From assembly GCA_963921275.4 (NCBI GenBank), contig OZ001293.3, positions 3,072,001-3,136,000 of the forward strand: 64,000 nucleotides of DNA, read 5' to 3'. This stretch comes from an uncultured Hormoscilla sp. Lineage in GTDB: Bacteria; Cyanobacteriota; Cyanobacteriia; Cyanobacteriales; Desertifilaceae. The position numbers and the translations under genes are program-made. This document shows positions 2,832-61,197 of this stretch, piece after piece (positions within the stretch are counted from its first letter, which is position 1; each line of letters starts with the position of its first letter). The notes under the pieces are model-generated. The model did not search any database, was not told the origin of the DNA, and saw only the letters and a program-made list of their open reading frames with translations.

Positions 2832-4142
2832 CTGGCTGCCTGACACAAGTGGCTGAAAGCTCGCAAATACGTGGTTTGTGAGAAAAAGGGCAGAGTGCTA
2901 TGCTTACGCTAGAGTCACTACACAACTAGCCATCAGAAGCATGTCTTACTCTACCCAACTTTACGATCAGCTATTGAGCTTTTTGCGTCAATACAGTCGC
3001 TACCGATATCTGCGTCATCTCAAAGCTCTAGCTTGGATGGTGACCGCCTTAATTTGTAGTGGTCAGTTGAGCCGCCTGGGAGCCCTATGTCCCCAGTCGT
3101 GCCAAGCAAGCCCAAAGTTTTGAACGCCGGTGGCACCGCTTTTTGGGTAATACGCTGATTTGTGTAAACTCGCTCTATATTCCACTGGTGCTACTAGCCC
3201 TCAAAGGTTGGCAGTCCCACCGTCTGTATCTTGCCCTCGATACCACAGTCCTGTGGAATCGTTACTGCATGATTCATCTATCGGTGGTCTGTTGTGGTCG
3301 CGCCTTGCCATTTCTATGGCGGGTGCTAGAGCACAGCAGCGCTACCGTAGCCTTCGATACATATAGACCCTGATTACGTCGAGCCCGGTGGCTATTGCGT
3401 CAACATCCCGATGTGATGCTGTTAGGAGACCGGGGCTTTGCCAATCACGATCTGATGAGTTGGTTACTTGCTAGTGGTTGGCACTACTGCCTGCGGCTGC
3501 CCTGTGATGTATTGCTGCATGGCCCTCGGCGCTATCCGATTGAAGTTAGCTATCTGTGACCACCTAAAGGCGAAGCAGTCTTTGATCGCAATGTCGGTCT
3601 ATGGCAAGATGGAGAACATCGCTGTAATCTTGTATTAGCCACTGTCAAAGGAGTCAAGGAACCCTGGGCGGTTATCACCGATGAGTCCCCCAGTTTACAA
3701 ACTCTGTGGCAATATGGTTTGCGCTTTCGGGTAGAGGAACTATTTTTGGATAGCAAGTCGGGGGCCTTTGAACTGGAAGACTCCCGCATCCGCTCAGTTC
3801 AAGCGCTTGAGCGGCTTTACTTAGTTGCTGCCATTGCCCTGCTTTACGCCACTACCCAGGGCATGGCTGTTCAACTTGAAGGCTTACGCCAGCAGGTAGA
3901 TCCCCATTGGCAACGAGGTCTCAGTTATCTCAAAATTGGTTGGCGCTGGCTCAAAGGAGTAGTCAATAAAGGTCGGCTACTTTTAATGCCAGTACCATTG
4001 TTGCCTAGAGATCCACAACCATGTTTTGCTTCCTTCAAAGCCAAGTATGATTACTACGACCAAATATGGTTTTCGCGTATCCGCTCAATACAGTGTAAAA
4101 CCTGATGCGCCTAGTTTTCATGCAGATGTGTCAGGCAGCCAG
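2832..4142 (+). mobile_element. IS4-family IS, transposase inactivated by stops and frameshifts
   Basis: 16-bp perfect IRs CTGGCTGCCTGACACA; 9-bp TSD GACCCGGAC (2823-2831, 4143-4151); LALDTT, GDRGF, RFRVEELFLDSKS. Confidence 0.9.
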
Positions 4143-7936: not shown

Positions 7937-9320
7937 ATGCCTTCTAGACAAAATCTCGATCCCGTGCAGACCAGGCCCTTGCCAAAGTACCTGGTCTTGC
8001 TGTTTTGTCTGAGCCTGTCATGGAGTCTCGCCTTCGCGATCGCCCCTCGGACAGTAGCATTAGATCCAGTTCCCGAACGCTATCAGCTAGGACTGGAACT
8101 GTACCTAAAAAATTGTGGCACTTGCCATAGGGCCCTGCCACCAGCGGTGATGCCCAGGGAAACCTGGCAACAGCTACTACAAGATGAGCAACATTATGGA
8201 GTCGGTGCGATTCGTTCTAGCCTAACGTGGTCAAACACGGAACGCTAGCCCGGTTTCATTAGCCGGGAACTCTGACCGCATGGGGGTTAAATTCCCCTCC
8301 CCCCAGGTACGGGGGTGACACCGGTCCTCGGTGCTACGAAGCGACATCATCGTGGTGCTAAGCGAGGACTCAAATGTAGGATAACTGGCAGCCTAAGCCG
8401 GTGACGCCGCTAGGAAAGATATCCAAGGTTAGAGCAGGCAAACATGTGCAAGCCTCGTTATAAGGAACCAGCGAAATAAGGCTATATGCGCTGGCCTAAA
8501 AAGGAAATGGTAGCTAGTATTAGTTTTAGACTCTGGCTAATATAGTACTCAAATAGCTCCCGGGGTATAGTGTGGACCTAAAGGTATCGCGAAATGTTGT
8601 TAGGGAACGAAGTAACCTCTCGTGTGCTGTCCATCAGGACAAGTTAGATGTTAAGCGCAAGCCACGGGGGGAGGGATGGCCCAAGAAGCGAATGCCCGGG
8701 GTAATTCCTGGGATAACATCTACAGTAATGTAGATGATGCTGGGTAGCCAGCGCTGACGTGGGTCGGTGATACTAGGAAGCTGCTGGAATGAGTAATCCT
8801 AAAAAGCCACGGAACTAATCCGAAACGCAAGTGGAGGATAAGGTATGGATAACTGGTAAAACTGACTTGAAAATGGTGATACTAACGGTTATCAGAACAA
8901 CCACTCGCTAAACCAGGAAAGGGAAGAAAAGACAGGCGGCAAGGGCTAACGGAAGTAATTCCTATTAAGTCTACCTATGAAAAGGGCCTAGTACCCAGTA
9001 GCCGGATGCGGTGAAAATCGCAAGTCCGGTTCCTCAAGGGAGGGTCGGGAAGCGATTCCCGGCTCGACCCCATCCGACTGCAACTCCCGATCGACCCATC
9101 CCGCCTGCTAATATGGCAATACCTGCAATTTGCCTCTCGTCCCCTAGCATCAGAGGACGAGACTCCTTATAGACTGAGGAACTCTCGTTATTTTCAAGCA
9201 CTTCATCCCCGAGTCAAGTTCACCTCGCCCATTACCATCAGCAGTTGTCTACAATGTCATCCAGATGCTATGAAGTATGACTTCCGTTCCCTCTCCCCCG
9301 AATGGCTTGATGCCCAATAA
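7937..9320 (+). CDS. Dihaem cytochrome c family protein split by a group II intron (exons 7937-8204 + 9076-9320; 170 aa spliced)
   Basis: Signal/TM segment, CGTCH in exon 1, CLQCH in exon 2; removing 8205-9075 gives an open frame ..HYGVGLQLPIDPSRLLIWQYL.. Confidence 0.88.
8205..9075 (+). mobile_element. ORF-less group II (IIB-like) intron, type A, 871 nt
   Basis: 5' GTGCGATTCG; domain V AGCCGGATGCGGTGAAAATCGCAAGTCCGGTT (~9000-9031); domain VI hairpin; no long ORF; near-identical copy at 18001-18871. Confidence 0.93.
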
Positions 9321-9412
9321 GCTAGCATTACGGGCAGGCGATCCGCCCGCCCTACGCAACAAAAGTGGTAAGATAAAAAATAGTCTGCCCTTAAATGTAT
9401 TGATATGCTGCC

Positions 9413-12223
9413 ATGCTGAAGAAATTGCTCGGCGATCCCAACGAACGCAAACTGAATAAGTATAAGCCTTTCGTTAAAGAAGTCAACCTGTATGAGGAGG
9501 AGATAAGGCCCCTATCAGATGAGAATTTGATCGCTAAGACGGCTCAATTTAAACAGCGGCTGTCGAAAGCATCCTCAGATAATGAGTTGAAGGAGATGCT
9601 GGACGAGCTGTTACCCGAAGCATTTGCGGTGGTCCGGGAAGCAGGACGCCGGGTGTTGGGAATGCGACATTTTGATGTCCAGCTGTTGGGCGGGATGGTG
9701 CTCCACGACAGACAGATAGCTGAGATGAAGACCGGCGAGGGAAAAACCCTGGTGGCTACCCTGCCATCCTACCTGAATGCCTTGACCGGAAAGGGAGTTC
9801 ATGTAATCACGGTTAATGACTACCTGGCACGCCGGGACGCGGAATGGATGGGACAGGTTCACCGGTTCCTGGGATTATCGGTGGGTCTGATTCAACAGGG
9901 GATGGGACCGGCAGAACGCCAGAAGAACTATGGTTGCGATATAACTTACGCTACCAACAGCGAGGTGGGGTTCGATTACTTGCGGGATAATATGGCTTCT
10001 GGAATGGCGGAGGTGGTGCAACGGCCGTTCAATTTCTGCATAATTGATGAAGTAGATTCGGTATTGGTAGATGAAGCTCGCACGCCGCTGATTATATCAG
10101 GTCAGGTAGACAGACCGAGCGAAAAGTATATCCAAGCAGCAGATGTGGCCAGGGCCCTGAACAAGGAAAACCATTATGAACTGGATGAAAAGGCCCGCAA
10201 TGTTCTGTTGACAGATGAAGGGTATATTGCAGCAGAGGAGTTATTAGGGGTAACAGACCTGTTTGACCCGAAAGACCCTTGGGCCCATTTTGTCTTCAAT
10301 GGGATCAAGGCGAAGGAACTGTTTATTAAGGATGTTAACTATATTGTCCGCAATGATGAAATAGTGATCGTAGATGAGTTTACGGGACGGGTGATGCCCG
10401 GACGCCGCTGGTCGGATGGCCTGCATCAGGCGATCGAGGCGAAGGAACGGGTAGAAATTCAACCGGAAACTCAGACTTTAGCGACAATAACATATCAAAA
10501 TTTCTTTTTGCTGTACCCGAAACTGTCGGGAATGACGGGGACGGCGAAAACGGAAGAGGCGGAATTTGAAAAGATATATAGTTTGGAAGTGACGGTGGTG
10601 CCCACAAACATGCTGACGGGTCGGCGGGATCTGTCGGATATGGTATATAAGACGAAAGCAGGTAAGTGGCAAGCAGTGGCCCAAAACTGCGCGGAGTTGC
10701 ACCAGCAGGGACGCCCGATTTTGGTCGGTACCACAAGCGTGGAAAAATCGGAGGTAATCTCAAGCTTACTATCCCAGCTGCAAATTTCCCATCAGTTGCT
10801 GAATGCTAAGCCCGAAAATGTGGAACGGGAGTCGGAAATTATTGCCCAAGCAGGACGGAAAGGGGCCCTGACGATCGCCACAAACATGGCCGGACGGGGT
10901 ACGGACATCATACTGGGGGGAAACTGCGACTACATGGCCAGGCTGAAGTTGCGAGAATATTTTATGCCCCGCATTGTCCAACCAGAAGATGAAGATGGTT
11001 TGGGTGCCCTGGGGGTGCCGGGAACTAAACTAAAGGGTAAGAAGGCTCAGGGTTTTGGTCCGGGACAAAAGGTGAAAACATGGAAGGTATCGCCGCAAAT
11101 TTTCCCCACGAAACTGTCCCCAGAAACAGAAAAACGGCTGAAAGAAGCGGTAGACTTCGCAGTCAGGGAGTACGGGGAACGGAGTTTGCCAGAACTCCAG
11201 GCAGAGGATATAGTAGCAGTGGCAGCAGAGTCGGCCCCCACAGATGACCCTGGGATCCAAAAGCTGCGGGATGTTTTCCAAGCCATTCGGAATGAATATA
11301 AGGAATTTACCGATCGCGAACATGAAGATGTGGTGCAACTGGGCGGTCTCTACGTGCTGGGAACGGAACGCCATGACTCGCGCCGGATCGATAATCAATT
11401 GCGGGGTCGCGCTGGTCGTCAGGGAGACCCCGGTTCCACCAGGTTCTTCCTCAGTTTACAGGATAATTTGCTGCGCATATTTGGGGGAGATCGGGTAGCG
11501 GGGATGATGGATATGTTCCGGGTAGAGGAAGATATGCCCATCGAGTCAAAGATGCTCACCCGTTCCCTGGAAGGGGCGCAAAAGAAGGTAGAAACCCACT
11601 ACTACGATATCCGCAAGCAGGTATTTGAGTACGACGAGGTGATGAATAACCAACGTCGGGCGATCTACGCAGAACGGCGTCGGGTACTGGAGGGTCAGGA
11701 CCTGAAGGAACAGGTGATTACATACGCTGAGAAAACGATGGATGAAATCGTTGAGGCTTATGTTAACCCAGAATTGCCCTCGGATGAGTGGGACCTGCCG
11801 AAATTAGTAGGTAAGGTGAAGGAGTTTGTCAATTTACTGGCAGACCTGGAACCGGAACATCTCGAAGACCTCAGCTTTGGGGAAATGAAAACGTTCTTGC
11901 ACGAACAGGTGCGGATCGCCTATGATATGAAGGAGGCTCAGATAGATAAAGTGCAGCCAGGTATGATGCGGCAGGCAGAGCGCTTCTTTATTCTCCAACA
12001 GATCGATACCCTCTGGCGAGAACATTTGCAACAAATGGATGCCCTACGAGAATCAGTAGGTTTGCGCGGTTACGGTCAGAAAGACCCGCTGATAGAATAT
12101 AAGTCGGAAGGCTATGAGTTGTTCCTGGAAATGATGATTTCTATTCGCAGAAATGTGGTATACTCGATGTTCCAGTTCCAACCTCAGCCCCAACCAACTG
12201 TGCAAACGGCAGAAATGGTTTAA
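9413..12223 (+). CDS. secA: Preprotein translocase ATPase SecA
   Basis: [35 protein letters not shown]; 936 aa. Confidence 0.98.
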
Positions 12224-12460
12224 AATTGGAGGTCGTAGGGCGGACGGATCGCCTGCCCGGGAACGCTTTAGCGTTTACTACGAACGGCAAACGCTAAAGC
12301 GTTTACTACGAACAGGGAAACTCTGGGGTCCGAAAAGGGGAGGATAGCCTCTGGCACATCGCCCCAAAGCTTACCCCAAAATAATGGGCTAGGCGAACTA
12401 CATCTTCCGGTCTCCTGACTATCTTTACCCCTAGCTGGCCCAGGAGTTCCTGAGCGCCTC

Positions 12461-14274
<1,814 letters not shown>

Positions 14275-14992
14275 TAGAAAGGAGCATGGAGATAAAACTC
14301 AAAAAGAGATGGCCATATTGTGGGGAGAGGAAGTTACGCAACCAAATATTAGTAGAACCATGCTTTGGTTAGGGATAAGCAGAAAAAAAAGACCTATGGA
14401 TATCGGGAAAGAGATGAAGAAAAACGTCAAGAGTTTTTGCGAAAACTAGATAATCTCGAAAAAAATAAGAGAATATACGTTGATGAGGCGATGTCTCAGG
14501 AGTAGTGCGATTAGCACTCTCCGGAGACATCGCAGGAATAGATAACAGAGAAGAATACCCCTATGGTTACTGCGATCCGAGGAGAAAGATTTTACGCAAT
14601 AAAATCCGGAAAACGAACCGAGAGAGTCAGTTGGATAGCGGCGCAGAGAGAAGATAAGGTCTTTGCTCCTTTAGTATTTAGTGGAGGTTGTAACAAGGAT
14701 TTATTTGAATTTTGGGTAGAATTCTGTTTAATCCCTCAACTTGAGGAGGGAGATGTAGTTATTATTGAAAATGCAAGTTTTCATAAGTCAATATTCGTTA
14801 GGGAACTAATTGAGTCGACTGGATGCGAGCTGTTATACTTACCAACCTCTTCTCCCGCTCTTAATAAAATAGAGCATTGGTGGTTTGTTCTCAAGAATTG
14901 GATGAAACAAAGGATAGACGAATTTGAGAATTTCTAAGACTTCATTGATGCTGCCTTTCGAAAATGTCCTAATGTATTTGCGTAATGCAATA
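14275..14992 (+). mobile_element. IS630-family transposase 3' part, degenerate
   Basis: KKKTYGYRERDEEKR, YVDEA(G), ENASFHK, YLPTSSPALNKIEHWW. Confidence 0.8.
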
Positions 14993-15390
14993 AAAACTCC
15001 TTCTCGGAAATCCTTCGGTCTAAACACTGTCGGCGTAAGACACTTAACTCGATTTCCGCCATATTCAACCAACTGCCATGTTTAGGAGTGTAATAAAATT
15101 CTAACTTATCCAGAATTCTACGAGCTGCCGATGGGCTAAAGGCTTTGTATAGGTGCGATTCGTTTAGCGTAAACTAACTTGACACAAGTCAAGGAGGGGG
15201 ACCGCTACCGGGATTTCGTAAGTCCCGAGAACTTACAGGTGATGGTGGTAAAAGCCCGCCCCTCCAGGTGCAGGAGTGACAGCACCCTCCCCACGGTAGC
15301 GATGGCATCAATCCGTGAAGCGGGAAGGAAAGGCGCTATGGCTGGGAGCCTAGACCGGTCATCGTCGAGCAAGTAACTATGATGAGCGTA

Positions 15391-16225
<835 letters not shown>

Positions 16226-16593
16226 AAGCGAAGGTTTGCAACGTCGTAAAGCCTATCCAGTGTAATAAGGCTGATACACTGGCCCAAAAAGGGAAAGGAT
16301 ACTGGTCATTGGCGGATGTATACCCGACCAATAAGCACTGACAATAAACCCGGCGTAGAGAACCCGTCTAAGGTTACGACCAATCATCTGTAGGAACGAA
16401 GTAACCCGGTTGTAGCACTCTCCATCACCGGTCGATAGATGGAGTAGCCACCACAGGCGTAACATCTGCTCTCCGGAAGGCAGGACGCAACTGGGGGAGA
16501 TTGAGTGGAGAAGCAAATGCCTGTCTGTAATGGATAGAATAAGCTGACGCCCTCACGGTCTCGTCAATTGTGAAGTTGTAAGTAGTAGTGAAT

Positions 16594-19255
16594 ATGTCAC
16601 GGAACTTAGTCGAAAGACAAGAGTATGAATGGAAGACTGTCGCCTGGCGAAAGCTGGAAAGGATAGTTTTTAAGCTGCAAAAGCGAATTTACAGAGCGGC
16701 ACTGGAAGGTAATAAGCAGAAGGTTCGTAAGCTCCAAGGATTACTAAATAGGTCATGGTCCGCGAAGATGATAGCGGTACGGCAGGTAACACAACAAAAC
16801 CAGGGAAAGAAGACGGCTGGTGTGGATGGTGTGAAAGCACTGACCCCAAAAGAACGTATCGAACTGGTAGGTCAAATTAAAGTTACTCGAAAGGCGAAGG
16901 CAAAAGCCACACGAAGAGTGTGGATACCGAAGCCACGAAGGGAGGAGAAGCGGCCATTAGGAATACCAACGATGCACGACCGCGCACTTCAGGGATTGGT
17001 TAAAGAAGCGCTAGAGCCTGAATGGGAAGCGTATATGGAAGCCAATTCCTACGGGTTTAGACCAGGTAGGGGATGTCATGATGCAGTTGCAGCGATATTC
17101 GCTAGCATCAGTCAAAAATCGAAATGGGTGTTAGATGCGGATATTGCGAAGTGTTTCGACGAAATTGACCATTCCGCGCTCCTAAAGAAATTGAATACTA
17201 CGTCACCAATCCGTAAACAAATACGGGCATGGCTAAAAGCTGGGGTGATGGACCGGGGAAGGATGGAATCCACAGAAGCCGGAACTCCCCAAGGTGGGGT
17301 TATATCTCCATTACTAGCCAATATAGCTTTACATGGGCTGGAAGGGGTAGTAATGGGTCTCGCTCACACAAAAAGAGAGAAGGAGAAGTTAACCGTAGTA
17401 AGATATGCGGATGACTTTGTGGTAATACATAATGACCGGTCGATGATTGAGGAAGCTCAAGGAGTGATTGAGGAGTGGTTGAAGGGAATAGGGCTGGAGC
17501 AAAAAGCCGAGAAAACGAAGATATCCCACACATTGGAAGGAGAGAGCCCTGGATTTGACTTCTTAGGGTTCAATATCCGACAATATAAAGTAGGGAAACA
17601 CAGAAGCGGCAAACTCTGTAACGGAACCCCCCTAGGATTCAAGACCCTAATCAAGCCTAGCGATAAATCCATAAGGAATCATAAAGAGCAGCTATCAGAG
17701 ATAGTTCGCCGCCATAAAGGGGCACCGCAAACGGCCTTAATAGCAAGACTAAACCCGATGATAAGGGGATGGAGCAACTATTATAGGACGGTGGTAAGTA
17801 AAGAAACTTACAGCTCTATGGATAACTACTTATGGAAGTTGTTATGGCGATGGGCAAAGAGAAGACATCCTAACAAAACGGGCAAATGAATTGCTAGTAA
17901 GTACTGGGGTATGACCGGGAAAGACCGGTGGAGGTTCGCTGGCAAGTCTAAAGAAGATGGAGGAATGAAGCTAAACCGATACTCTGAAACTGAAATAATC
18001 GGATGGGGTCGAGCCGAAAATCGCTTCCCGACCCTCCCTTGAGGAACCGGACTTGCGATTTTCACCGCATCCGGCTACTGGGTACTAGGCCCTTTTCATA
18101 GGTAGACTTAATAGGAATTACTTCCGTTAGCCCTTGCCGCCTGTCTTTTCTTCCCTTTCCTGGTTTAGCGAGTGGTTGTTCTGATAACCGTTAGTATCAC
18201 CATTTTCAAGTCAGTTTTACCAGTTATCCATACCTTATCCTCCACTTGCGTTTCGGATTAGTTCCGTGGCTTTTTAGGATTACTCATTCCAGCAGCTTCC
18301 TAGTATCACCGACCCACGTCAGCGCTGGCTACCCAGCATCATCTACATTACTGTAGATGTTATCCCAGGAATTACCCCGGGCATTCGCTTCTTGGGCCAT
18401 CCCTCCCCCCGTGGCTTGCGCTTAACATCTAACTTGTCCTGATGGACAGCACACGAGAGGTTACTTCGTTCCCTAACAACATTTCGCGATACCTTTAGGT
18501 CCACACTATACCCCGGGAGCTATTTGAGTACTATATTAGCCAGAGTCTAAAACTAATACTAGCTACCATTTCCTTTTTAGGCCAGCGCATATAGCCTTAT
18601 TTCGCTGGTTCTTTATAACGAGGCTTGCACATGTTTGCCTGCTCTAACCTTGGATATCTTTCCTAGCGGCGTCACCGGCTTAGGCTGCCAGTTATCCTAC
18701 ATTTGAGTCCTCGCTTAGCACCACGATGATGTCGCTTCGTAGCACCGAGGACCGGTGTCACCCCCGTACCTGGGGGGAGGGGAATTTAACCCCCATGCGG
18801 TCAGAGTTCCCGGCTAATGAAACCGGGCTAGCGTTCCGTGTTTGACCACGTTAGGCTAGAACGAATCGCACAGACACGTAAAGGTTAAGGGGACAGCTAG
18901 CCCGTTTGACGGTAATCTGGTTTATTGGAGCAAAAGACTGAGAAAAAGCCCGGATGTGAGCGCTAGAGTTATCAGACTGCTAAAAGAGCAGGATGGTAAG
19001 TGTGTGCACTGCGGACTGAAATTCAAAGATGGCGACAAATGGGAGGTTGACCATATTCTACCAGTTTCTAAAGGAGGTAAAGACTGGTATACCAACCTAC
19101 AGTTGCTGCATGATTATTGCCATGATGTAAAGTCTGCCAGAGATGGTGACAAAGGCCGTATCCATGACAAGGATGGCGAAACTGAGGAGCCGGATGAGGT
19201 GAAAGTCTCACGTCCGGTTCTGAAGACGAGTCGGCGGGGTGACCCGTTGGCTTAG
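16594..19255 (+). pseudogene. ltrA: Group II intron RT/maturase/HNH protein, inactivated by TGA at 17887-17889 and the insertion 18001-18871
   Basis: KRPLGIPT, SYGFRPGR, GTPQGGVISPLLAN, RYADD, domain X, CVHCG..EVDH..NLQLLHDYCH HNH. Confidence 0.93.
18001..18871 (-). mobile_element. ORF-less group II intron type A, second copy, antisense within the RT ORF
   Basis: Reverse complement of 8205-9075 with only a few substitutions seen; removal gives SETEII|RHVKVKG. Confidence 0.93.
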
Positions 19256-20351
19256 TTTAATAGAAGCTTTCACATGAGTATTAAGATGATCTTGAACGAC
19301 GAGAATTTTCCGCGCTTGAGGAAAACATTCATCAACCAAATACTTCATCTGGTGAGCATAGTCGTAAGAAGTCCGTTGGTCAGGGGTTCTCGTTTCTGAA
19401 ATTAACTGTTTGGAACATTCATCAAAACAAACCAAAGGGTAATCTGAATCATAAGCACGGGTGTACAGGTCTAAAACTTCTTCCATCTGACAGACAAATT
19501 CAGCACTTTCTTGAGGTGGAATTATCCAACATTCCTGAAACCAAGGTTTAATTTCGTTTTTTTTAATACCTGTCGTACCGTTTCATGGGAAAGGCTTTCT
19601 ACATATCCTAAAGCTACCATTTGATCGGCGAGGAGTCGTAAAGTCCAACGACTATACCCAGTCGGTGCTTGGCTGCAAGCTAATGCAATTAAATGAGCTT
19701 CGACTTCTCCATCGATACGCCGTAACTGAGATGAGAGGTGGGGACGGGTGGGTTATTGCTTTTTCTAAACCCTCTTCTACAAACCTTTGTCGAACTCTTT
19801 CAATCGTTCTGGTACTAATGTTCAAAGCTTGGCTAATTTCATTATCTGTCCACCCTCCATCGGTTTGATTAATATCGGCTTTAAGTAAGATGCGAGCATA
19901 ATTAATTTTCCTCGCCGCAGCTTTTCCTGTTGTAGTTAGCTTTTCTAGACTTTGGCGTTCTTCTTCTGTTAGGGAAACTATATATCGTTTGGCTGGCATG
20001 GTTTCTCACTCTTTGTTCTCTTCTCTTCTATTATCTGTCATTATTACTTGATAGACTAATAGCAATCGACAATATTTTTTGCAGACAACCCTTCTTTTTT
20101 TTCAATGCTGACCTGATGTACTATATTATTAAAAGGGAAAGGAGTAATTAGAGGATTGAAATTTATGAGGGGGCAAACCCCCTATTGTTGACAAAAACCG
20201 GGGTGATGGATTGAGGTAATTTTCAGATTAAACTCCAATTGAGAATTCAGGTGTCGGTAATACCCATAGCAGAAATCGTAAAGGTTGATCGCCCCCCGGC
20301 TCTGTGCCTAGAATAAACTTAAATAGACTAAGATGTTAGGAGTATTAAGCG

Positions 20352-23059: not shown

Positions 23060-23600
23060 AGGTCAGCTTCTAACCGTAAGCGCTCCATCGCCGCAGCGGA
23101 CAAAACGCTCGTGGCGTTGTTCGATGTGCTCTGCTGCTGTGTCTCCTGGGAGCTTGATTTCTCCCGGGAGCGCTAGGCGCACAAAAGGGAAGACATCATA
23201 GTCGCACAAAAGGGGAGACACAGCTCGCTACATGCGCTGCGCGCACACGGCTACGTCTGCGCGATCGCACTGCGCATCGCACATCCGCTGTTTCATTCTC
23301 GATCGCTGTGGTCAGACGCAGTAGGCGGTCTGTATTATTGATGGCAATTTCCAGCAGCCGCATATCTTGTGGAGGTAGGGAGCCTAGCTTGCCACTGAGC
23401 AAAAGACCCAAGGCTGCGCGAATTGAGGTCAGAGGTGTGCGCAGTTCGTGACTGACTAGTGAGGTTAATTCATCTTGCGATGTCTCCGGAGTAGTGCGAG
23501 TAGCGCAAGGCGTGGAGACATCCCCTCGGATAAGGGCGATAAATCCAATTGGTGCTTTTGGCAGGTGTCAATTTTTTTGGCCACGCCGATACTTGTCATA
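23060..23600 (-). pseudogene. HisKA-containing signalling gene remnant riddled with short repeats
   Basis: DELTSLVSHELRTPLTSIRAALGLL..NNTDRLLRL. Confidence 0.65.
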
Positions 23601-23757
23601 TTTGCTAATTTCCTATATTACCTGGACCCAGATCGGGCTGTTTTTGATCGTTACAAAAAGAATGTGAAAAACGAACAAGGCTATCCAATCATCAAAGCAG
23701 CTGCTGTCACCAGGTGAGTTATACTCCCACCAGGCGATCGGGCAATACTGGGCATCA

Positions 23758-23841
23758 ATGCCTCTCCGGTAGTGCGAATACGATGTCTTCTGGGTAGTGC
23801 GATTAGCGCTCCCAGAAGACATCGAACTCCCGAGAGGCATC
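23758..23841. repeat. Nested palindromic mini-elements (inner copy 23782-23823)
   Basis: ATGCCTCTC..GTAGTGCGAATAC[GATGTCTTCTGGG..CCCAGAAGACATC]GAAC..GAGAGGCAT. Confidence 0.85.
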
Positions 23842-24002
23842 GAATACTCCAGTCCCACCGGTCAGATATTATCGGATCCAGAGCATTTTCTATTTTGCCC
23901 GCAGGATCTGCGAAGATTGTATCATATATTATTACGCATGTCAAGCGATACTTATGCCCGATATCCGCCGATTATCAATTGACAATTTTCAATTAACAAT
24001 TT

Positions 24003-24467
24003 TTAATTTGATTGCCAGTCAGGGCAATTTTCAGAATCCCAACCGTAGGGATGCATGGCGCAGATGAACATATTACCCCCGTAAACTTGACCGTGGTAAT
24101 GACGACAACCTACGCAGGCTGGATGGCTGTTCTGGATCGGGTCTCCCGTGTCGCCTTCGGGGTAGTATGGTTCTTCGATGTCTCCGGAGTAGTGCGAGTA
24201 GCGCTCTTCGGAGACATCGAAGGGCAGTTCGCCATCATATTCTATATAAAGAACCACGATTGGCTCGAATATATCGTTTAAAAATTCTTCAAACTCGTTC
24301 AACTCACTGGAGAATGCTGACTGGAGTTCTTCAGATATTTCTTCAGAAATCTCGGCTAACGCATCGACAAACTCTGTGACTTCTTCAGTTACTTCACTAA
24401 AAAACTTTTCTACCTCGCTAGTCACCACTTCTAGAAGCCAAAAAAAATCTTTTTGCCAATCTTCCAT
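24003..24467 (-). CDS. Acidic cyanobacterial hypothetical protein with C-terminal Cys/His cluster; contains an in-frame 42-bp mini-element
   Basis: PACVGCRHYHG..CAMHPYG..CPDW. Confidence 0.85.
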   Translation of the reverse strand: MEDWQKDFFWLLEVVTSEVEKFFSEVTEEVTEFVDALAEISEEISEELQSAFSSELNEFEEFLNDIFEPIVVLYIEYDGELPFDVSEERYSHYSGDIEEPYYPEGDTGDPIQNSHPACVGCRHYHGQVYGGNMFICAMHPYGWDSENCPDWQSN

Positions 24468-24886: not shown

Positions 24887-24921
24887 ACCGACCGTCGTTC
24901 CTTTCAAGAGGTGACCCGGAG

Positions 24922-25567
24922 TCCACGCCTGCTACAAGCATCCCGTATTGCTGCCACCTTCCGGTCCTGACAAGGTTTGGGTGTTGTCACCGCATGAGTC
25001 CAGGTCTTCTCTACCATAACATGGGAATGCCTTTGTTGTGCAACTTTTCCGAAAAATTTGTTGCACATTCTCACCGATGATGGTGGATAATTGTGCAACG
25101 GCAAATTTGTTTATGGGGATTTCTTTATTGGTGACTGGTGCTTCGTCTAAATTCTGCCGGTGCGTTCGACGCGGAAGTTTGATAATCTTTTCGACAACGG
25201 GCCGCTTGGCTTTCAGGCAGAAGCAGCACAAGGGCTGTTGTAATGGAGTCCCGTTCTGGGGTGACTTCGGATCTATCTGTTGCTGGACCGAAGAGCCCAT
25301 CGCGTCTAATGGGGAGACCTGAATTCCACGCCTGCTACAAGCATCCCGTATTGCTGCTACTTCCGTCCTGACAAGGTTTTGGCGTTGTAACCGCATGGGT
25401 TCTCCAGGTCTTCTCCACTATAACATTAGACTGCCTTTGTCGTGCAACTTTTCTGAAAAATTTGTTTGTGGGGATTTTTGTTTGGGTGCTGGCGAGCTAT
25501 TTTTCATATGCCGGTGCTAACTAGCAGGACGTTGGATAATCTTTTCGACAACGGGCCGCTTAGCTTT
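24922..25567. repeat. Diverged direct duplication of the activase 3' end and downstream region (24922-25213 vs 25325-25567)
   Basis: TCCACGCCTGCTACAAGCATCCCGTATTGCTGC and GATAATCTTTTCGACAACGGGCCGCTT each occur twice. Confidence 0.8.
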
Positions 25568-26065: not shown

Positions 26066-26229
26066 ATTAAACTAAGCCAGGGAGTCACCTCCCCGACTCG
26101 TCTTCAGAACCGGACGTGAGACTTTCGCCTCATCCGGCTCCTCAGTAATGCCATCCTTGTCACGGATACGGCTACTACCATCGCTGGCAGTCTTTATATC
26201 ATGGCAGTGTTTGTGCAACAGTTGTAAGT
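26066..26229 (-). mobile_element. 3' remnant (HNH end, DV, DVI) of an RT-type group II intron
   Basis: LQLLHKHCHDIK; GAGCCGGATGAGGCGAAAGTCTCACGTCCGGTTC..GCTTAGTTTAAT. Confidence 0.9.
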
Positions 26230-26688
26230 CTGGCTGCCTGACACATCTGCATGAAAACTAGGCGCATCAGGTTTTACACTGTATTGAGCGGATACGCGAA
26301 AACCATATTTGGTCGTAGTAATCATACTTGGCTTTGAAGGAAGCAAAACATGGTTGTGGATCTCTAGGCAACAATGGTACTGGCATTAAAAGTAGCCGAC
26401 CTTTATTGACTACTCTTTTGAGCCAGCGCCAACCAATTTTGAGATAACTGAGACCTCGTTGCCAATGGGGATCTACCTGCTGGCGTAAGCCTTCAAGTTG
26501 AACAGCCATGCCCTGGGTAGTGGCGTAAAGCAGGGCAATGGCAGCAACTAAGTAAAGCCGCTCAAGCGCTTGAACTGAGCGGATGCGGGAGTCTTCCAGT
26601 TCAAAGGCCCCCGACTTGCTATCCAAAAATAGTTCCTCTACCCGAAAGCGCAAACCATATTGCCACAGAGTTTGTAAACTGGGGGACT
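26230..26688 (-). mobile_element. Partial second copy of the IS4-family element
   Basis: Near-identical to 3684-4142, including the IR. Confidence 0.9.
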
Positions 26689-34563: not shown

Positions 34564-35292
34564 ATGAGGAAAGTTAAACCCGCGATCGCAGTCTGCAACC
34601 TCTGCTTCTCCTATCCAGACAAGCAGCATGTCTTACAGAATCTGAGTCTGACAATACAGCCAGGAGAACGGGTCGGACTAATTGGTCCCAATGGTGCTGG
34701 TAAAACCACCTTCTTTTTATTGATTTGCGGTGTCTTGCAGCCAACCGCTGGTGAAATTGTACTCTGGGACGAGCCAGTGGTAGCTGGGGAGTTTCGTCCC
34801 GAAATCGGCCTAGTATTTCAGAATCCCAACGATCAGTTATTTTCCGCATCAGTCCGAGATGATGTCGCATTTGGTCCGGAAAATCTTGGCTTGTCACCGG
34901 CGGAAGTAGATGACCGCGTACAAGCAGCCCTCTCCCTGACAGGTGTTTTAGAACTAGCTGCGCGAGTACCTCACCACTTGTCTGGAGGAGAAAAGCGGAT
35001 GGTCGCGATCGCCTCTGTCTTAGCGATGCACCCCCAGCTAGTGATTTACGACGAACCCAGCGCCAACCTGGATCTGCGAGCCCGGTGTCGCCTGATCGAC
35101 TTCTTGCAAGACTCAAACGAAACCCTAGTCATTTCCTCCCACGATTTAGAACTGATTCTGGAACTGTGCGATCGGGTCCTCTTACTTGACCAAGGCCAGA
35201 TCGTCGCCGATGGCCCCCCCCAGGAAGTGATGGCCGATTGGCAACTCATGCAGGATCATGACCTAGAGTGCGATTCGTTTAGCATAAACTAA
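34564..35292 (+). CDS. cbiO: ECF transporter ATPase (CbiO family); last codons supplied by an inserted intron
   Basis: GPNGAGKT, VFQNPNDQLF, DDVAFGP, LSGGEKR, DEP. Confidence 0.88.
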   Translation: MRKVKPAIAVCNLCFSYPDKQHVLQNLSLTIQPGERVGLIGPNGAGKTTFFLLICGVLQPTAGEIVLWDEPVVAGEFRPEIGLVFQNPNDQLFSASVRDDVAFGPENLGLSPAEVDDRVQAALSLTGVLELAARVPHHLSGGEKRMVAIASVLAMHPQLVIYDEPSANLDLRARCRLIDFLQDSNETLVISSHDLELILELCDRVLLLDQGQIVADGPPQEVMADWQLMQDHDLECDSFSIN

Positions 35293-36095
35293 CTTGACAC
35301 GAGTTAAGAAGGGGGACCGCTGGCAGGGTTTATTAGCCCTGACAACTTACAGATGATGGTGGTGAAAGCCCACCCCTCCAGGTGCAGGAGTGACAGCACC
35401 CTCCCCACGGTAGCGATGGCATCAATCCGTGAAGCGGGAAGGAAAGGCGTAATGACTGGCAGCCTAAACTGGTCATCGCTAAGCAAGTAGCTATGATGAG
35501 CATAATGCGAAGATTTGCAACGTCGTTACATGAAACCAGCGGAATAAGGCTAAACACGCTGGCCCAAAAGGGAAAGGATACAGGTCATTGGCGGATTCTG
35601 GACCGACCAATAAGCACTGACAACAAACCCGGCGTATGGAATCCATCTAAGGTTACGACCAATCATCTGTAGGAACGAAGTAAACCGGTTGCAGTACTCT
35701 CCATCACCGGTCGATAGATGGAGTAGCCACCACAGGCGTAACATCTGCTCTCCGGAAGGCAGGTCACAACCGGGAAAGATTGAGTGGAGAAGCAAACGCC
35801 CGTCTGTAATGGATGGGATAAGCTGACGCCCTCACAGTTTCGTCAATTGTAAAGTTGTAAGTAGTAGTGAACATGTCACGGAACTCAGTCGAAAGACAAG
35901 AGTATGAATGGAAGGAGGTGCCCTGGCAAGAGCTGGAGCGCCGAGTCTTTAAGCTACAAAAGCGAATTTACAGAGCGGCACAGGAAGGCAACAAGCAGAA
36001 AGTTCGCAAGCTCCAGGGACTATTGAACAGGTCATGGTCCGCGAAGATGATAGCGGTTTGTCAGGTAACGCAACAGAACCAAGGGAAAAAGACGG
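35268..36095 (+). mobile_element. 5' part of an RT-type group II intron (DI-DIV and RT start), truncated
   Basis: GTGCG at 35268; homologous to 15153-15390 + 16226-16816; RT N-terminus to QGKKT. Confidence 0.9.
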
Positions 36096-36465
36096 TCTTC
36101 CCAATCGATGACAGTTTTCTTGGAGACGTTAAGGTTCGTGCAACTGCATTGAGACCCATCCCTTCACTCCTGGCTTTGAGAACTTGGATAATCCGACTTC
36201 AGGGAGTTCGTAGACCCGCTAAGTGGCCAAGGTTTCACTGTAGTAAATGTCACACGCCTGGCAATGGTGGATGGTGCGCTACCGTTGTGTTGAGTCTCAG
36301 GGAGGGTGGTGAGGCTGTACCTCTTCACTCCCACAACAGGGACAACACTGCGAGAATAGTTCCATAACACACCTCTAATTCCGGAAAAGTCTCAGCCTCT
36401 CTATGATCATCTATAATTCATAGAGGGCAAGTCTTTGGGCTATCCTGTTCAGCGGAACCAGTGCC
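36090..36465 (-). mobile_element. IS1-family left-end fragment
   Basis: Reverse complement of 61198-61576. Confidence 0.9.
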
Positions 36466-37397
36466 CAAGATAGGGTCCCGGAAAAATCCATACCATGAAG
36501 ATATATTTGTTGACCTCTTTTTACTACTTGATTAACTTGGCTTCCACTTTTCAGGCGACGATCCGGATCGGATACCTATTATTGCATGAAAAATTTTCCG
36601 CTCGCGTACCCATTTAAGCATCTCAATACTACCAAAGCCAGTATCGGCTAAAATTCTAACCTGAAAACACTCTGTTAGCTTTTTCGGTATAGTTAAAATC
36701 AAATTTTGCGCCAAAGGGGTTTTCTCGCCCTTACCCCGATAAACTCTAAAACCCCAAGGTATACGAAAATCTCCGAGTAAAATATAAAGGACAAGAAGAT
36801 GGAGCCCCCGTTTACCATTGTAGACTCCGATAAAATTATTTAATCCTTTGAACTTCCCTACTTTCTCTAATGTTGTCAAGTCAATAACTACCTCCAAGAT
36901 CGGTTTGCGACCTTTGCGACCAGGAGGGCGTTTGGCTAATAACAGTTCAACAATCTTATTTCTTATAGCCCTAATCACTCTACGAGTTGGCCATTTGTAT
37001 ATATTTAGGAAACGGCTAATTGCACTTGGAGATTTGGTTTGACAGTGCTGGAGCAGGGGATATCCATTGGCTTGTAAAAATAGTCCAAGTAAGCTCTCAA
37101 GGCTCTCTGACTGGTAAATACTTGGCATTAATCCAAGTAGAAATTGAACTAATACCTGGGTATATTTAACTAGAATGTCCATTGATAGATTTGCCAATCG
37201 GTGTTAAGCGAGCAATCTTCTTTATTATACAACAATTATACAACAGTATGCTGTGTCAATTAATAGAGTATCTATGACTAATGGTCAGTTGTAAACGATG
37301 AGCGTCAAAACATGATAATTATTTTTACTCAAGGAATACCAGAGACAAGAAATTATAGCGGGCCATCGGGCTTGTTGAGAATGGTGCAAGATGTCAG
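36466..37397 (-). mobile_element. IS701/IS4-like transposase, 3'-truncated
   Basis: VIDLTTLEKVGKF, ILADTGFG; terminus CTGACATCTTGCAC. Confidence 0.75.
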
Positions 37398-40757: not shown

Positions 40758-40824
40758 TAGATCGAAGGCTCCGCGTTGGCGGTGGGCTAGATTGTCGAGG
40801 CAACCAGCCACCGACAGTACCGCA

Positions 40825-40904
40825 GTGTCTCCTGGGTAGTGCGACTACGATGTCCCCCGGGTAGTGCAGCGCTCCTGGAGAACATCGAGCGACCAGGAGA
40901 CACC
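40825..40904. repeat. Nested palindromic mini-elements (inner copy 40849-40886)
   Basis: GTGTCTCCTGGGTAGTGCGACTAC[GATGTCC..AACATC]GAGCGACCAGGAGACAC. Confidence 0.85.
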
Positions 40905-43584: not shown

Positions 43585-43974
43585 ATTGTTATCTCACTCA
43601 ATTACAACCTGTTTCTGGGGTGAATGGCGGGGAATGACGCCCCGGTGTCTCCTGGGTAGTGCGACTAGGGGTCGGGAGACACCGCTACTCAAACCATTCG
43701 TTAAATCAAAAACATACTTGACAGTAAAACAGAGCTGGATTATTTGCAAGCCTGGCTAATTACCATCAATTTTATGTTACAATAGCAACTTATCTCGACT
43801 TCCAAGGGCGGTGTCTCCTGGGTAGTGCGACTAGGGGTCGGGAAACACCGGAAGAATAAGGGTAGTGGTCAATATGCAGTGATTTGACTACAGTCTGCCC
43901 AGGGTTTCAGGTGCTAAAATCACTACTTGTACCCTCGCCTGACCCACTACCTAGACAAGCATGACTGGCTGCTG

Positions 43975-50852: not shown

Positions 50853-52700
50853 TTATTCCGTAACTTCCTTCACCCGAGCTGGCGTAATGACTTCTTCACC
50901 CACACGCCATCCCGGATGAATACAACGTACTACTTTTTTATCTTCTGAGTTAGCAAAAGCGGAGCCCTCAACATAAGCATATGCGGACAACTGCTCGCTC
51001 TGCAATTCAAAAACTTGATCCTCCTGGGCTGGATATCGTGTCACATTAAGTGAATTTAATGCTTGCAACAAATTTTCTAAAGCAATCAAAATGCCCAGAG
51101 AGTCGCTGGGAGACAAAGATAACTCCGAGTTTGACTCTGACATTTTATTTAACCGTTGGTACAGGAGCATAATTTGATCCAAAACTGGTTGATCCTGTTT
51201 CTGAAGAGTTGTGACCAATTGACAAACCGCTGATTGGAGTGCTTGAGAACGAATTTCTGACAGCTCTTTTTTCAATTTTTCATTTTCCTGCTGCAAAAGT
51301 TCCACTTGATTTGTGAGGTTAGCTTCAGTCTCTCCTAACTCCCAAACTAAATTCTGAGCGGCTTCCTCCTTAATTGCCGTCGGCGTGATGTTAAATTATT
51401 TTTGCAGTTGCAATCCTAACTCACCGAGAGACCAAGAAGCCCCCCACTTTAATAATGTTTTATAGCCATGAGATGAGTTAAGCAGATCGCGTACCTTTTG
51501 ATCTACTACTGAGGGAAGTTCCGCTAAAAATAAAAATGTTCTCTCTTGGGAATTTTTGAAATAGTCAATTACCTCACAAAACTCACTCAGCTTAGTCAAA
51601 TCCCGGTTTTCCGAATCCGCAGAATCCGCAAAAGCATATTCTGCTAGTTCGACAAACTTACTCAGATTTGCCTGAAGTTGCTGTCTAACTGTCTGGGGAG
51701 ACTCGCTATACTTTCTTGACAGGTAAAAAAAGAATTTTTCTGCCGTATCGTACTCAACTGAATCAAATTTTCGGTTAAGTATTTCCTTCCAGCTATCCCC
51801 TTCTTTCACAACTCTTACACATTTATGGTGAATAGGAGCAATAGCTTCCTGTCTTTCTTTATACTTCTGACTTTGCGGCACAAATCCCCTGTAGGAATAA
51901 TTGAGAAAATTCACTAATCTTCTCCAAGGAGATGATGCTAACTCCTTCTTCAAGAGTTCCACTTGCCGGTTGGCTTTCGTCTCTCCTAAATCCTGAACTT
52001 TCTTTATCTTGATATCCTTATTCACTTCCTTCTTTTCCTGCTTAACTTCCTTACGCGCGATCCCCAATCTCTCTTCCAGTTGCCATCCGAATTCATTCAG
52101 AAAGGGAGAAGCTCCCCACTGTAATAATGCTTGATATCCTGCCGATGAGTTAAGCATCTCCCGGTCCTTTTGCTCCAGAACGGAGGGAAGTTCTGACAAA
52201 AACCAATATGTTTTCTCTCGCGACTTTTTGAAATAGTCTATTACCTCACCCAACTCACTCAGCTTGGTCAAATCCCGGTTTTCCGAATCTGCCAAAGCAT
52301 ATTCTGCTAGTTCCACAAACTGACTCAGTTTTGCTTGCATTTGCTCTCTAACTTCCTGGGGAGACTCGCTGCTTGACAGGTCATCAAAGAATTTTTTGGC
52401 CGCCTCGTACTCAACTGAATCAAAATTTTGGTTAAGTATTTCCTCCCAGCTATCCCCTTCCTTCACAACTCTTACACATTTATGGTGAATAGGAGCAATA
52501 GCTTCCTGTCTTTCTTGATCTTTCTGGCTTTTCGGCATAATTTTTCTGTAGAAATCATTGAGACAATTCACTAATCTTCCCCAAGGGGATGCTGCCAACT
52601 CTTCTGGGGAAAATCCTGGTTGAACTGGTTTGTTTTTCTCTGGACGTGCCAATGCCTTATTTTCTGATGTCTTTTTCGGTTTTGGTTTTTCTGTCTTCAT
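50853..52700 (-). pseudogene. Protein with two ~205-aa tandem repeats and a C-terminal GrpE-like domain, split by one in-frame TAA (51396-51398)
   Basis: The two ORFs are in the same frame with 30 open codons between them; C-terminus VVRCIHPGWRVGEEVITPARVKE. Confidence 0.75.
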
Positions 52701-61147: not shown

Positions 61148-61197
61148 TAGTTTCAGCCAACCTTTACGAATAGCGTATAGTAGCCGGTCGATAGCTG

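Follow-up and report, generated by a model that had tools for sequence, protein, structure and literature searches.

The window analysed, 64,000 nt of an uncultured Hormoscilla sp. (OZ001293.3, 3,072,001-3,136,000; all positions given here are window positions), contains four complete ORF-less group II introns within 11 kb, as the original prediction had claimed. Intron A1 (8205..9075, + strand, 871 nt) lies in sense within a dihaem cytochrome c gene, B (12573..13440, + strand, 868 nt) inside a repeated element, C (15391..16225, + strand, 835 nt) in sense within domain I of a larger intron, R1, and A2 (18001..18871, - strand) antisense within the R1 protein gene, where it separates the maturase part from the HNH part. 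These coordinates were borne out by Rfam RF00029 (domains V/VI), by nhmmer and by empty sites. RF00029 matched A1 at 8997-9073(+), B at 13362-13439(+), C at 16147-16224(+) and A2 at 18003-18079(-), and 4 of 4 copies scored 44.4-48.1 bits, above the gathering cut-off of 40 bits. An nhmmer profile built from the four introns found exactly these four full-length copies within the 64-kb window. Each copy begins with GTGCG, which satisfies the GUGYG rule. The 3' ends read ...AUCC or ...GACU, not a plain AY, and lie 1-2 nt past the last position matched by Rfam; even so, the empty site of B and the reading frame around A1 fix the boundary.

The dihaem cytochrome c gene consists of exon 1 (7937..8204, + strand; Pfam DHC profile positions 1-34) and exon 2 (9076..9320, + strand; Pfam DHC 42-116, E 4e-9; second CxxCH), and both the reading frame and the DHC profile run on across the A1 junction. 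This is indirect evidence for the excision of A1 from an otherwise complete, in-frame gene.

Copies, empty sites and the ORF-containing intron R1

The expected pair of near-identical type A copies is present: A1 and A2 show 3 mismatches over 871 positions, and their flanking sequences are unrelated. Insertion was precise and without target duplication, as seen from clean empty sites for B (two), C and A2. The uninterrupted target sites of B are exact, one at 61300-61315 (+), within a paralogue of the host element, and one at 36348-36363 (-). The near-identity of A1 and A2 at unrelated sites and the empty sites of B, C and A2 agree with the mobility that had been proposed. The repeat shared by A1 and A2 measures 888 nt and extends past the intron ends because of gapless extension. 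The identity between types A and B is 73% for DI-DIII, 64% for DIV and 80% for DV-DVI; for B and C the values are 84%, 88% and 88%. Between A and B/C, DIV as a whole thus changes faster than the core (63-64% vs 73-80% identity).

Both C and A2 lie within R1 (15153..19261, + strand), a 4.1-kb ORF-containing group II intron that the original prediction had overlooked. It begins with GTGCG at 15153, measures about 2.4 kb minus its two inserts, and its domains V/VI match RF00029 at 19185-19261 (57.6 bits). Since C is nested inside it, R1 is a twintron; the R1 sequence on either side of C is uninterrupted in a paralogue, R2 (35268 onwards), which thus provides the empty site for C. R1 is 83-86% identical to an intact intron in locus L045, and comparison with this homologue shows that A2 is a clean insertion that splits the R1 RT gene. 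Because A2 is antisense in the R1 ORF, it cannot be spliced out of the R1 transcript. The RT and maturase part of the R1 protein (16594..17889, + strand; Pfam RVT_N, RVT_1 and GIIM) is cut off by A2, and the HNH endonuclease part (18956..19255, + strand; Pfam HNH, E 5e-14) is encoded in a frame that continues through domains V and VI.

Two further R-type introns are present in the window: R2 (35268..36130, + strand), the 5' part of an intron that breaks off some 90 codons into the ORF and is 86% identical to L045 over 840 nt, and R3 (26066..26206, - strand), a 3' fragment (RF00029, 59.3 bits) with megablast matches to L045 and L081. R1, R2 and R3 are all damaged, and the window is without an intact intron protein gene; intact R-type protein genes exist in related genomes (L045).

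Class and relatives

The R1 protein scored 356 bits with NCBIfam TIGR04416, and its best PDB match was the maturase-RT 6me0_C (E 6e-91), which we take to be the TeI4h protein of Thermosynechococcus elongatus, of the chloroplast-like (IIB) class. Because this is the best solved relative of the protein, the nearest ORF-containing relatives look like ordinary chloroplast-like (IIB) introns; the protein lineage holds for R1 and not directly for A, B and C. The latter, 835-871 nt long, all group with the CL-type intron population, and their ribozyme groups with ordinary cyanobacterial introns. The Rfam D1-D4 model gave 22 bits on the ORF-less introns (cut-off 36), and the ORF-less DI-DIII profile matched ORF-containing introns (e.g. 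L067, 117.5 bits).

Among the matches listed, the closest relatives of A, B and C are introns in Hormoscilla genomes. The tree of these matches split off an ORF-less clade with support of 100/99, which includes one Okeania intron with an unrelated DIV; a Trichodesmium locus (L019) groups with the ORF-containing introns. The DI-DIII of A is 46-56% identical to every ORF-containing intron among the matches listed (55% to R2), and no close ORF-containing parent in the same genome was among them. Of the proposal of a long-lived lineage forming an undescribed subclass, the part that stood is therefore a separate, fairly deep ORF-less clade among the matches listed. The new subclass did not: the protein of the relatives is nearest 6me0 chain C, and the arrangement matches what the source on T. 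elongatus discussed below describes in the portion used here.

Domain IV of the ORF-less introns

DIV measures 229-247 nt in the four introns. That of A1 (8753..8999, + strand) comprises 247 nt from the GCTGACG junction, with 11 helices predicted by RNAalifold, and scored 253.9 bits with a covariance model of the ORF-less DIV; B (13131..13364, + strand) scored 253.5 bits and C (15923..16149, + strand) 245.1 bits.

As had been stated, no RT remnant was detectable in DIV by blastx, DNA-profile or alignment tests. Stops occur in all three frames, and there is no ORF of at least 50 aa on the intron strand. The best blastx E-value was only 0.23 (7 DIVs vs 17 intron proteins), and a DNA profile of 8 DIVs gave no match at E<=10 in 58,957 nt of ORF-containing introns. 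When the DIV interior was aligned locally with the N-terminal coding region, 6/100 (A) and 4/100 (L005) shuffles were as good, and 42-93/100 in the other five; globally, 19-107/200 shuffles were as good. The similarity is not significant in either test. An nhmmer profile of the N-terminal region gave E 0.062 for A, E 0.82 for L037 and no match in the other 5 DIVs.

The RNA fold, on the other hand, is kept. Pairs were counted on a MAFFT alignment of A, B, C and L101 using the RNAalifold helices, and 98% of the cells paired, with 21 of 50 pairs changed on both sides, in line with the claim of an alignable DIV with compensatory helices. None of 500 shuffles matched this pairing result, and slid controls gave at most 5 double-change pairs. 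An alignment of 10 distinct rows fitted to the covariance model was 94.9% paired with double changes in 33 of 50 pairs; E-values from such models are rough. One helix named in the claim, GATRACT/RGTTATC, did not hold up (85.7% paired, 102/500 shuffles as good, broken in L101). Instead, the two fixed blocks pair with each other (CUGGU/ACCAG and C.GA/UC.G, 100% paired, 10/500 shuffles as good). The 3' hairpin is capped by a GNRA-type loop in all relatives, with differing loop letters. The single-sequence fold of A DIV was no more stable than shuffles (z -0.49).

The original prediction saw in DIV an added module replacing the ORF. This reading is unsupported because the outer parts of DIV (basal stem, a nested pair of long-range helices, last hairpin) have counterparts at matching positions in ORF-containing cyanobacterial introns. 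When 11 ORF-containing cyanobacterial introns were folded by themselves, RNAalifold predicted a nested pair of helices, one at columns 29-35/192-197 and the other at columns 49-53/178-182; of their 11 pairs, 5 show double changes. Like helices 3 and 4 of the ORF-less DIV, they flank the AAGTA(G/A) motif and are spaced 9-10 nt apart on the 3' side. The position of helices 3 and 4 resembles that of the helices between the 5' UTR and the first codons in the ORF-containing relatives. A filter-free search of 72,782 nt with the ORF-less model picked out the corresponding position in two ORF-containing introns, that of L067 at 648-850 with 19.6 bits (E about 1e-4) and that of L065 with a weaker 9.3 bits (E 0.16). 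The reciprocal covariance model, built from ORF-containing introns, found no ORF-less DIV at E<=10. Of 94 domain V sites, 13 have a hairpin with an ATGACAA loop immediately upstream (0.003 expected per site); it is present in the ORF-less L101, L070, L021a and L037, as one- or two-base variants in A, B and C, and as protein-coding sequence in the ORF-containing R1, L045, L049, L065, L080 and others. The 3' side of DIV thus shares a hairpin that is coding in the relatives, and the 5' side corresponds to them in position and structure and through the 19.6-bit match.

An independent ORF deletion was found in L021 (3021-4095), a locus of a related genome, which relative to L006 has lost about 1.56 kb and kept a DIV of 210 nt. 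Judged from these sequences, the size of DIV in A, B and C is nothing unusual and is about what a simple ORF deletion leaves, and the domain looks mostly like the old scaffold of the region and not like a new invention.

What appears, from the DNA searched, to be lineage-specific in DIV is only a central block of about 80 nt, confined to one subclade. It lies at 8842..8923 (+) in A1 and at 13207-13288, 15993-16073 and 18153-18234(-) in the others. A profile of the block found only 6 copies in about 561 kb, the 4 in the window and one each in L101 and L070, both Hormoscilla loci. The block was absent from the ORF-less L037, L099, L005 and L021a, from all ORF-containing introns and from the other DNA searched, and no R-type element resembles it. 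The fixed blocks that had been described are conserved within this subclade, and among the other ORF-less relatives only L101 and L070 share them. Over the fixed block, A and B match at 31 of 34 positions (hand count), vs 73% in DI-DIII. One guess would be that the central block is a sequence-specific protein contact.

Discussion

The interpretation that we favor, with a probability of roughly two in three, is that A1, A2, B and C are non-autonomous, ORF-deleted chloroplast-like (IIB-type) introns whose DIV is mainly an ancestral remnant and which depend on a helper protein in trans. Both their splicing and their movement, through reverse splicing followed by reverse transcription, would rely on an RT/maturase supplied by ORF-containing introns of the same genome. 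The R-type introns are candidate helpers, all three window copies being damaged; given the distance of the ORF-less clade from the ORF-containing introns sampled, the R-type may not be the helper. DIV would then be what the ancestral domain kept after a coding loss of about 1.5 kb: basal stem, nested helices and terminal hairpin. In the ORF-containing relatives, the nested helices are predicted to join the 5' UTR/start-codon region to the stretch encoding a conserved KLQKRI(Y/F) motif and are probably the primary protein-binding site, domain IVa. The coding signal has eroded beyond detection and the pairing is kept by compensatory changes, a pattern that points to selection on the RNA fold; in the simplest case, such selection may have preserved the binding of the helper protein and held the ribozyme halves together.

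It is unlikely that DIV is instead a distinct RNA module in place of the ORF, carried by a long-lived lineage as a new subclass and able to recruit a foreign RT or to substitute for the maturase. Such a module would be consistent with the lack of significant RT similarity in DIV, with a central block more conserved than most of the ribozyme and absent from ORF-containing introns and the other DNA searched, with the separateness of the ORF-less clade (Okeania intron included, among the matches listed), and with the failure of the reciprocal model to join the two kinds of DIV. However, the outer two thirds of DIV have positional counterparts in ORF-containing relatives, its size is the leftover of a plain ORF deletion, the whole domain has diverged faster between A and B/C than the core has, and the ribozyme groups with ordinary cyanobacterial introns; the block is found in one subclade only, and the DIVs of other ORF-less relatives (179, 343 and 546 nt) are without it. 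A related version, which we consider doubtful, holds that the ORF-less clade of Hormoscilla and one Okeania intron is old, self-perpetuating and without an autonomous sister, with the block as a docking platform: a CUGGU...ACCAG core would enclose a conserved loop and borrow the reverse transcriptase/maturase of another intron family, much as a SINE depends on a LINE.

The opposite view, that DIV is decaying junk between the ribozyme halves and that the likeness of A, B and C reflects recent common descent, seems quite improbable. The range of DIV length among relatives (179 to 546 nt), an interior unconserved across the wider clade and a single-sequence fold no more stable than shuffles (z -0.49) would suit it, but 21 of 50 pairs keep pairing through two-sided changes (slid controls reach no more than 5), the central block hardly varies where the flanking DIV is 64% identical, and the GNRA-type 3' hairpin loop persists in all relatives though its letters differ. 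We regard as very improbable that the introns are independent of protein, self-splicing and perhaps reverse splicing into DNA as RNA alone, with a protein needed for cDNA only, or that they are now immobile. The A1 host gene needs splicing, the window is without an intact intron protein gene, and a modified mitochondrial class IIB1 intron is described, in the part of the source drawn on here, as carrying out full reverse splicing into DNA in vitro without protein (PMC11754743). Against this, near-identical copies at new sites imply completed retromobility and hence the need for a reverse transcriptase, and intact R-type protein genes exist in related genomes (L045).

Comparable arrangements exist in other prokaryotes. 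Dai and Zimmerly reportedly described in 2003 archaeal ORF-less and RT-encoding group II introns, with homing into the ORFs of related introns. Coexistence with RT-encoding introns and insertion into related introns are the same here; the host was archaeal there and is cyanobacterial here, with A2 antisense in the ORF. Another comparable case is Trichodesmium erythraeum, also a filamentous cyanobacterium with much non-coding DNA. According to the sections of Pfreundt and Hess (2015, PMC4649490) used here, 10 of its 17 in-vivo-spliced group II introns are without an ORF; ORF-less introns in protein genes are spliced in vivo, presumably with the help of maturases encoded in trans, large DIVs occur (215 and 317 nt plus ORF), and one intron is nested in domain I of another. 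In that twintron both partners have ORFs, whereas here the inner intron, C, is ORF-less.

By analogy, the arrangement appears to match the kind known from TeI3/TeI4 of T. elongatus, where ORF-less derivatives are spliced and moved by the protein of a relative. The excerpts of Mohr et al. (2010, PMC2882425) relied on here describe a deletion of about 1.5 kb in domain IVb with IVa retained, mobilisation by the proteins of relatives, and twintrons. In both systems the host is a cyanobacterium, ORF-less copies are numerous and accompany ORF-containing relatives, and DIV has lost (in the present case, probably) about 1.5 kb with the structured 5' part kept and covarying leftover elements. Both also have ORF-less introns nested in ORF-containing ones, and insertions in genes as well as intergenic DNA. 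For T. elongatus, the same excerpts call the ORF remnants at the N- and C-terminal ends 'clearly discernible' and trace every intron to one ancestor in the genome, whereas here there is no significant coding remnant and the ORF-less clade is separate (46-56% in DI-DIII) and, among the matches listed, deeper and without a close ORF-containing sister. The conserved 80-nt block occurs here in one subclade; TeI3/TeI4 were compared through the paper's description only.

If the block indeed docks a heterologous protein, it would provide a compact handle on the evolution of helper specificity; otherwise, the finding is an ordinary one for filamentous cyanobacteria. The usual model for the origin of spliceosomal introns and their common splicing machinery builds on ORF-less group II introns that rely on one protein between them. 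The locus is a well-resolved natural example, with an ORF-less intron in a splicing-dependent gene, a twintron, an antisense hit that disrupts the protein gene of the host intron, and exact empty sites, and it shows what appears to be coding sequence becoming pure RNA structure, the pairing kept and the reading frame lost.

ORF-less introns of the window and their insertion sites

A search with Rfam gave six matches to group II intron domains V/VI in the window, four of which fall where the original prediction had placed ORF-less introns: A1 (8205-9075, + strand), B (12573-13440, +), C (15391-16225, +) and A2 (18001-18871, -). The remaining two of the six belong to other introns, with ends at 19261 (+) and 26066 (-). 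All four ORF-less introns start with GTGCG and can be aligned over their full length, and a profile built from them found no fifth copy in the 64-kb window. The pair of near-identical type A copies at unrelated sites was borne out: 3 of 871 positions distinguish A1 from A2, and the sequences flanking the two copies are unrelated. A blastn search of a plasmid collection with A1, at a distant setting, gave no match.

The gene interrupted by A1 encodes a dihaem cytochrome c. Its first exon covers positions 1-34 of the Pfam DHC family, and the frame continues downstream of the intron in exon 2, which covers positions 42-116 and contains the second haem motif. The target of B is uninterrupted in two further copies of its host element, at 61300-61315 (+) and 36348-36363 (-). 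The EBS/IBS candidates found by a script in A1, A2, B and C were only 6 nt long, and their register was inconsistent among the copies.

ORF-containing introns of the window

C and A2 are both enclosed by an ORF-containing (R-type) intron, R1 (15153-19261), which also starts with GTGCG and had been overlooked in the original prediction. Its protein has an RT-maturase part (16594-17889; RVT_N, RVT_1 and GIIM) and an HNH part (18956-19255). The nearest solved maturase-RT is 6me0_C (E 6e-91), and the protein is 81% identical to that of L045, an R-type intron outside the window. C interrupts domain I of R1 in the same orientation, so that the two form a twintron; a second R-type intron, R2 (35268 onwards), runs continuously through the corresponding point and is truncated ~90 codons into its ORF. 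A2 lies antisense in R1 between the maturase and HNH parts, where the intact L045 homologue is continuous. The R1 protein gene is therefore broken, and A2 cannot be spliced from the R1 transcript. R3 (26066-26206, -) is a 3' fragment of an R-type intron.

In R1 (18956-19255), L006, L010, L045 and L065 the protein frame extends through domain V into domain VI, and the catalytic RNA thus overlaps coding sequence. The C-termini of such frame-extended proteins, from R-type and several other cyanobacterial introns, end ...EEPDEVKVSRPVLKTS...

Relatives and phylogeny

The domain V pattern used to search genomes was too general, matching at least 108 stretches, most of them from unrelated phyla. Among the matches listed, the nearest relatives come from three Hormoscilla genomes, which hold the ORF-less introns L037, L005, L021 (7501-8029, partial), L101, L070 and L097 as well as R-type ORF-containing introns, including L045. 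The domain IV of these ORF-less relatives varies in length (L021, 179 nt; L101, 240 nt; L037, 343 nt; L005, 546 nt). An Okeania contig carries a further ORF-less group II intron of 871 nt (L071, 25-895, +), with a domain IV unrelated to the Hormoscilla ones.

A maximum-likelihood tree of domains DI-DIII separated six ORF-less introns, L071 among them, from ten introns of R- or other ORF-type with support of 100/99; its 16 rows, taken from the window and the matches listed, are a thin sampling, and L071 stands on a long branch. Type A DI-DIII is 46-56% identical to the ten ORF-type rows. L080 was considered as an ORF-containing sister of the ORF-less clade and rejected, its DI-DIII being without similarity. 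Between type A and B or C, identity is lower in domain IV (63-64%) than in the ribozyme (73-80%); between B and C the two are about equally conserved.

Coding content and structure of domain IV

Domain IV is 247 nt long in type A, 234 nt in B and 229 nt in C, and has stops in every frame. The absence of a recognisable RT remnant, as originally predicted, held in every comparison made apart from one short match in L005. With blastx, seven domain IVs gave a best E-value of 0.23 against 17 intron proteins. With blastn, no match to intron genes had E <0.01, except for a 33-nt A-rich stretch in L005. A profile of eight domain IVs found nothing at E ≤ 10 in 58,957 nt of ORF-containing introns with nhmmer. 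The converse nhmmer search for an RT remnant with an N-terminal profile was not significant, nor were local and global alignments of the domain IV interior with N-terminal coding regions when compared with dinucleotide shuffles.

The L005 stretch (~3875-3907, in a domain IV at 3453-3998) shows 88% identity to part of the L045 protein gene close to the RT/maturase boundary (E 8.7e-5, with A-rich low-complexity sequence unmasked). The match may come from a remnant of the ORF interior or be due to chance, and we place no weight on it.

RNAalifold predicted 11 helices in domain IV from A, B, C and L101. In the MAFFT alignment of these four, 98% of cells were paired and 21 of 50 pairs showed changes on both sides, values somewhat favoured by the fact that the tested structure came from the same alignment. 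None of 500 shuffles equalled this pairing, and slid controls gave at most 5 double-change pairs. A covariance model built from this structure also recovered L070 (147.8 bits), L021 7576-7754 (124.4 bits) and L037 (63.2 bits), and in the model-fitted alignment 94.9% of cells were paired, with double changes in 33 of 50 pairs. The covariations originally claimed for the basal stem and the GNRA hairpins were confirmed; the claimed helix GATRACT/RGTTATC was not. The two fixed blocks are instead each other's pairing partners. Type A domain IV folded alone was no more stable than its shuffles (z -0.49), and A1 domain IV gave only chance snoRNA-type matches (E>2) in Rfam at relaxed thresholds.

Origin of domain IV

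Domain IV had been read in the original prediction as an extra RNA module in place of the RT ORF. Its outer parts are linked to those of ordinary ORF-containing introns by three lines of observation. In 11 ORF-containing cyanobacterial introns analysed alone, RNAalifold predicted two nested, covarying long-range helices, one joining the 5' UTR to the codons for a conserved K-R-I-(Y/F) motif and the other pairing the stretch just past AAGTAG with K-L-Q codons. The two nested long-range helices of the ORF-less domain IV (helices 3 and 4) flank the same AAGTA(G/A) motif, with a 3'-side spacing of 9-10 nt as in the ORF-containing set. In a filter-free search of 11 loci, the top match of the ORF-less model was the corresponding region of L067 (19.6 bits, E ~1e-4), and L065 gave a weaker match in the equivalent position (9.3 bits, E 0.16). 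Of the 94 domain V sites listed, 13 are preceded at 12-25 nt by a hairpin with an ATGACAA loop, where chance would give 0.003 per site; both ORF-less and ORF-containing introns have this hairpin, and in the latter it is C-terminal coding sequence. Finally, the intron at L021 3021-4095 (+) derives from an L006-type Hormoscilla intron by a separate and recent deletion of the ORF. It has lost ~1.56 kb and keeps the first ~50 codons, still readable, and the last ~55 nt in a domain IV of 210 nt. This intron also has an extra insert of ~137 nt in domain I.

The best-supported reading is that the outer parts of the ORF-less domain IV are a retained domain IVa scaffold. We keep this as an inference because the sequence tests were non-significant and the reciprocal covariance model, from the 5' domain IV of ORF-containing introns, matched no ORF-less domain IV.

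Of the relatives listed, only L101 and L070 also carry the central block of ~80 nt (8842-8923 in A), and 0 of 300 shuffles reached the observed score. It was not detected in L037, L099, L005 or L021a, for which 199-269 of 300 shuffles scored as well. A profile of the block found only six copies in the ~561 kb searched, four of them in the window.

Other repeats and RNAs in the window

The host element of B is at least 1.1 kb long, with three copies (12458-14274, 61195-62373 and 36090-36467, -) that are 97-100% identical; one carries B and another truncates R2. Pfam gave no match for its 213-aa ORF (61507-62148). The two arms of a perfect inverted repeat, 459 nt each, lie 22 kb apart (3684-4142 and 26230-26688); each has a 128-aa ORF without Pfam match, and one arm adjoins the R3 fragment. 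Seven palindrome-like repeats of ~42 nt (14489-14530, 23478-24217, 40823-40864, 43643-43850) form a family, perhaps of small mobile or regulatory elements. The window is cyanobacterial, and an 8-base repeat occurs in it in 34 copies (0.65 expected). A tandem duplication of ~660 nt (51363-52601, -; 77-88% identical) lies within a 434-aa ORF (51396-52700), and a Bacterial small SRP RNA was found at 24910-25006 (-) with 49.2 bits (Rfam cut-off 40).

Comparison with known systems

The ORF-less introns of T. elongatus are described as having one ~1.5-kb deletion in domain IVb, with domain IVa kept and its loops covarying; proteins of relatives mobilise them, and twintrons occur (Mohr et al. 2010, PMC2882425). 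In Trichodesmium, an ORF is missing from 10 of the 17 group II introns reported as spliced (Pfreundt and Hess 2015, PMC4649490). Another study reports the highest numbers of group II introns per genome in cyanobacteria and counts ORF-less introns among the types increasing in certain genomes (Miura et al. 2022, PMC8919778). Given these precedents and the closeness of the R1 protein to 6me0_C, the introns are of a kind already known. No literature on group II introns in Hormoscilla was found. Compared with T. elongatus and the other precedents, however, the ORF-less lineage here is deeper, among the matches listed, its domain IVs hold no detectable coding remnant, and one of its subclades has a conserved central block.
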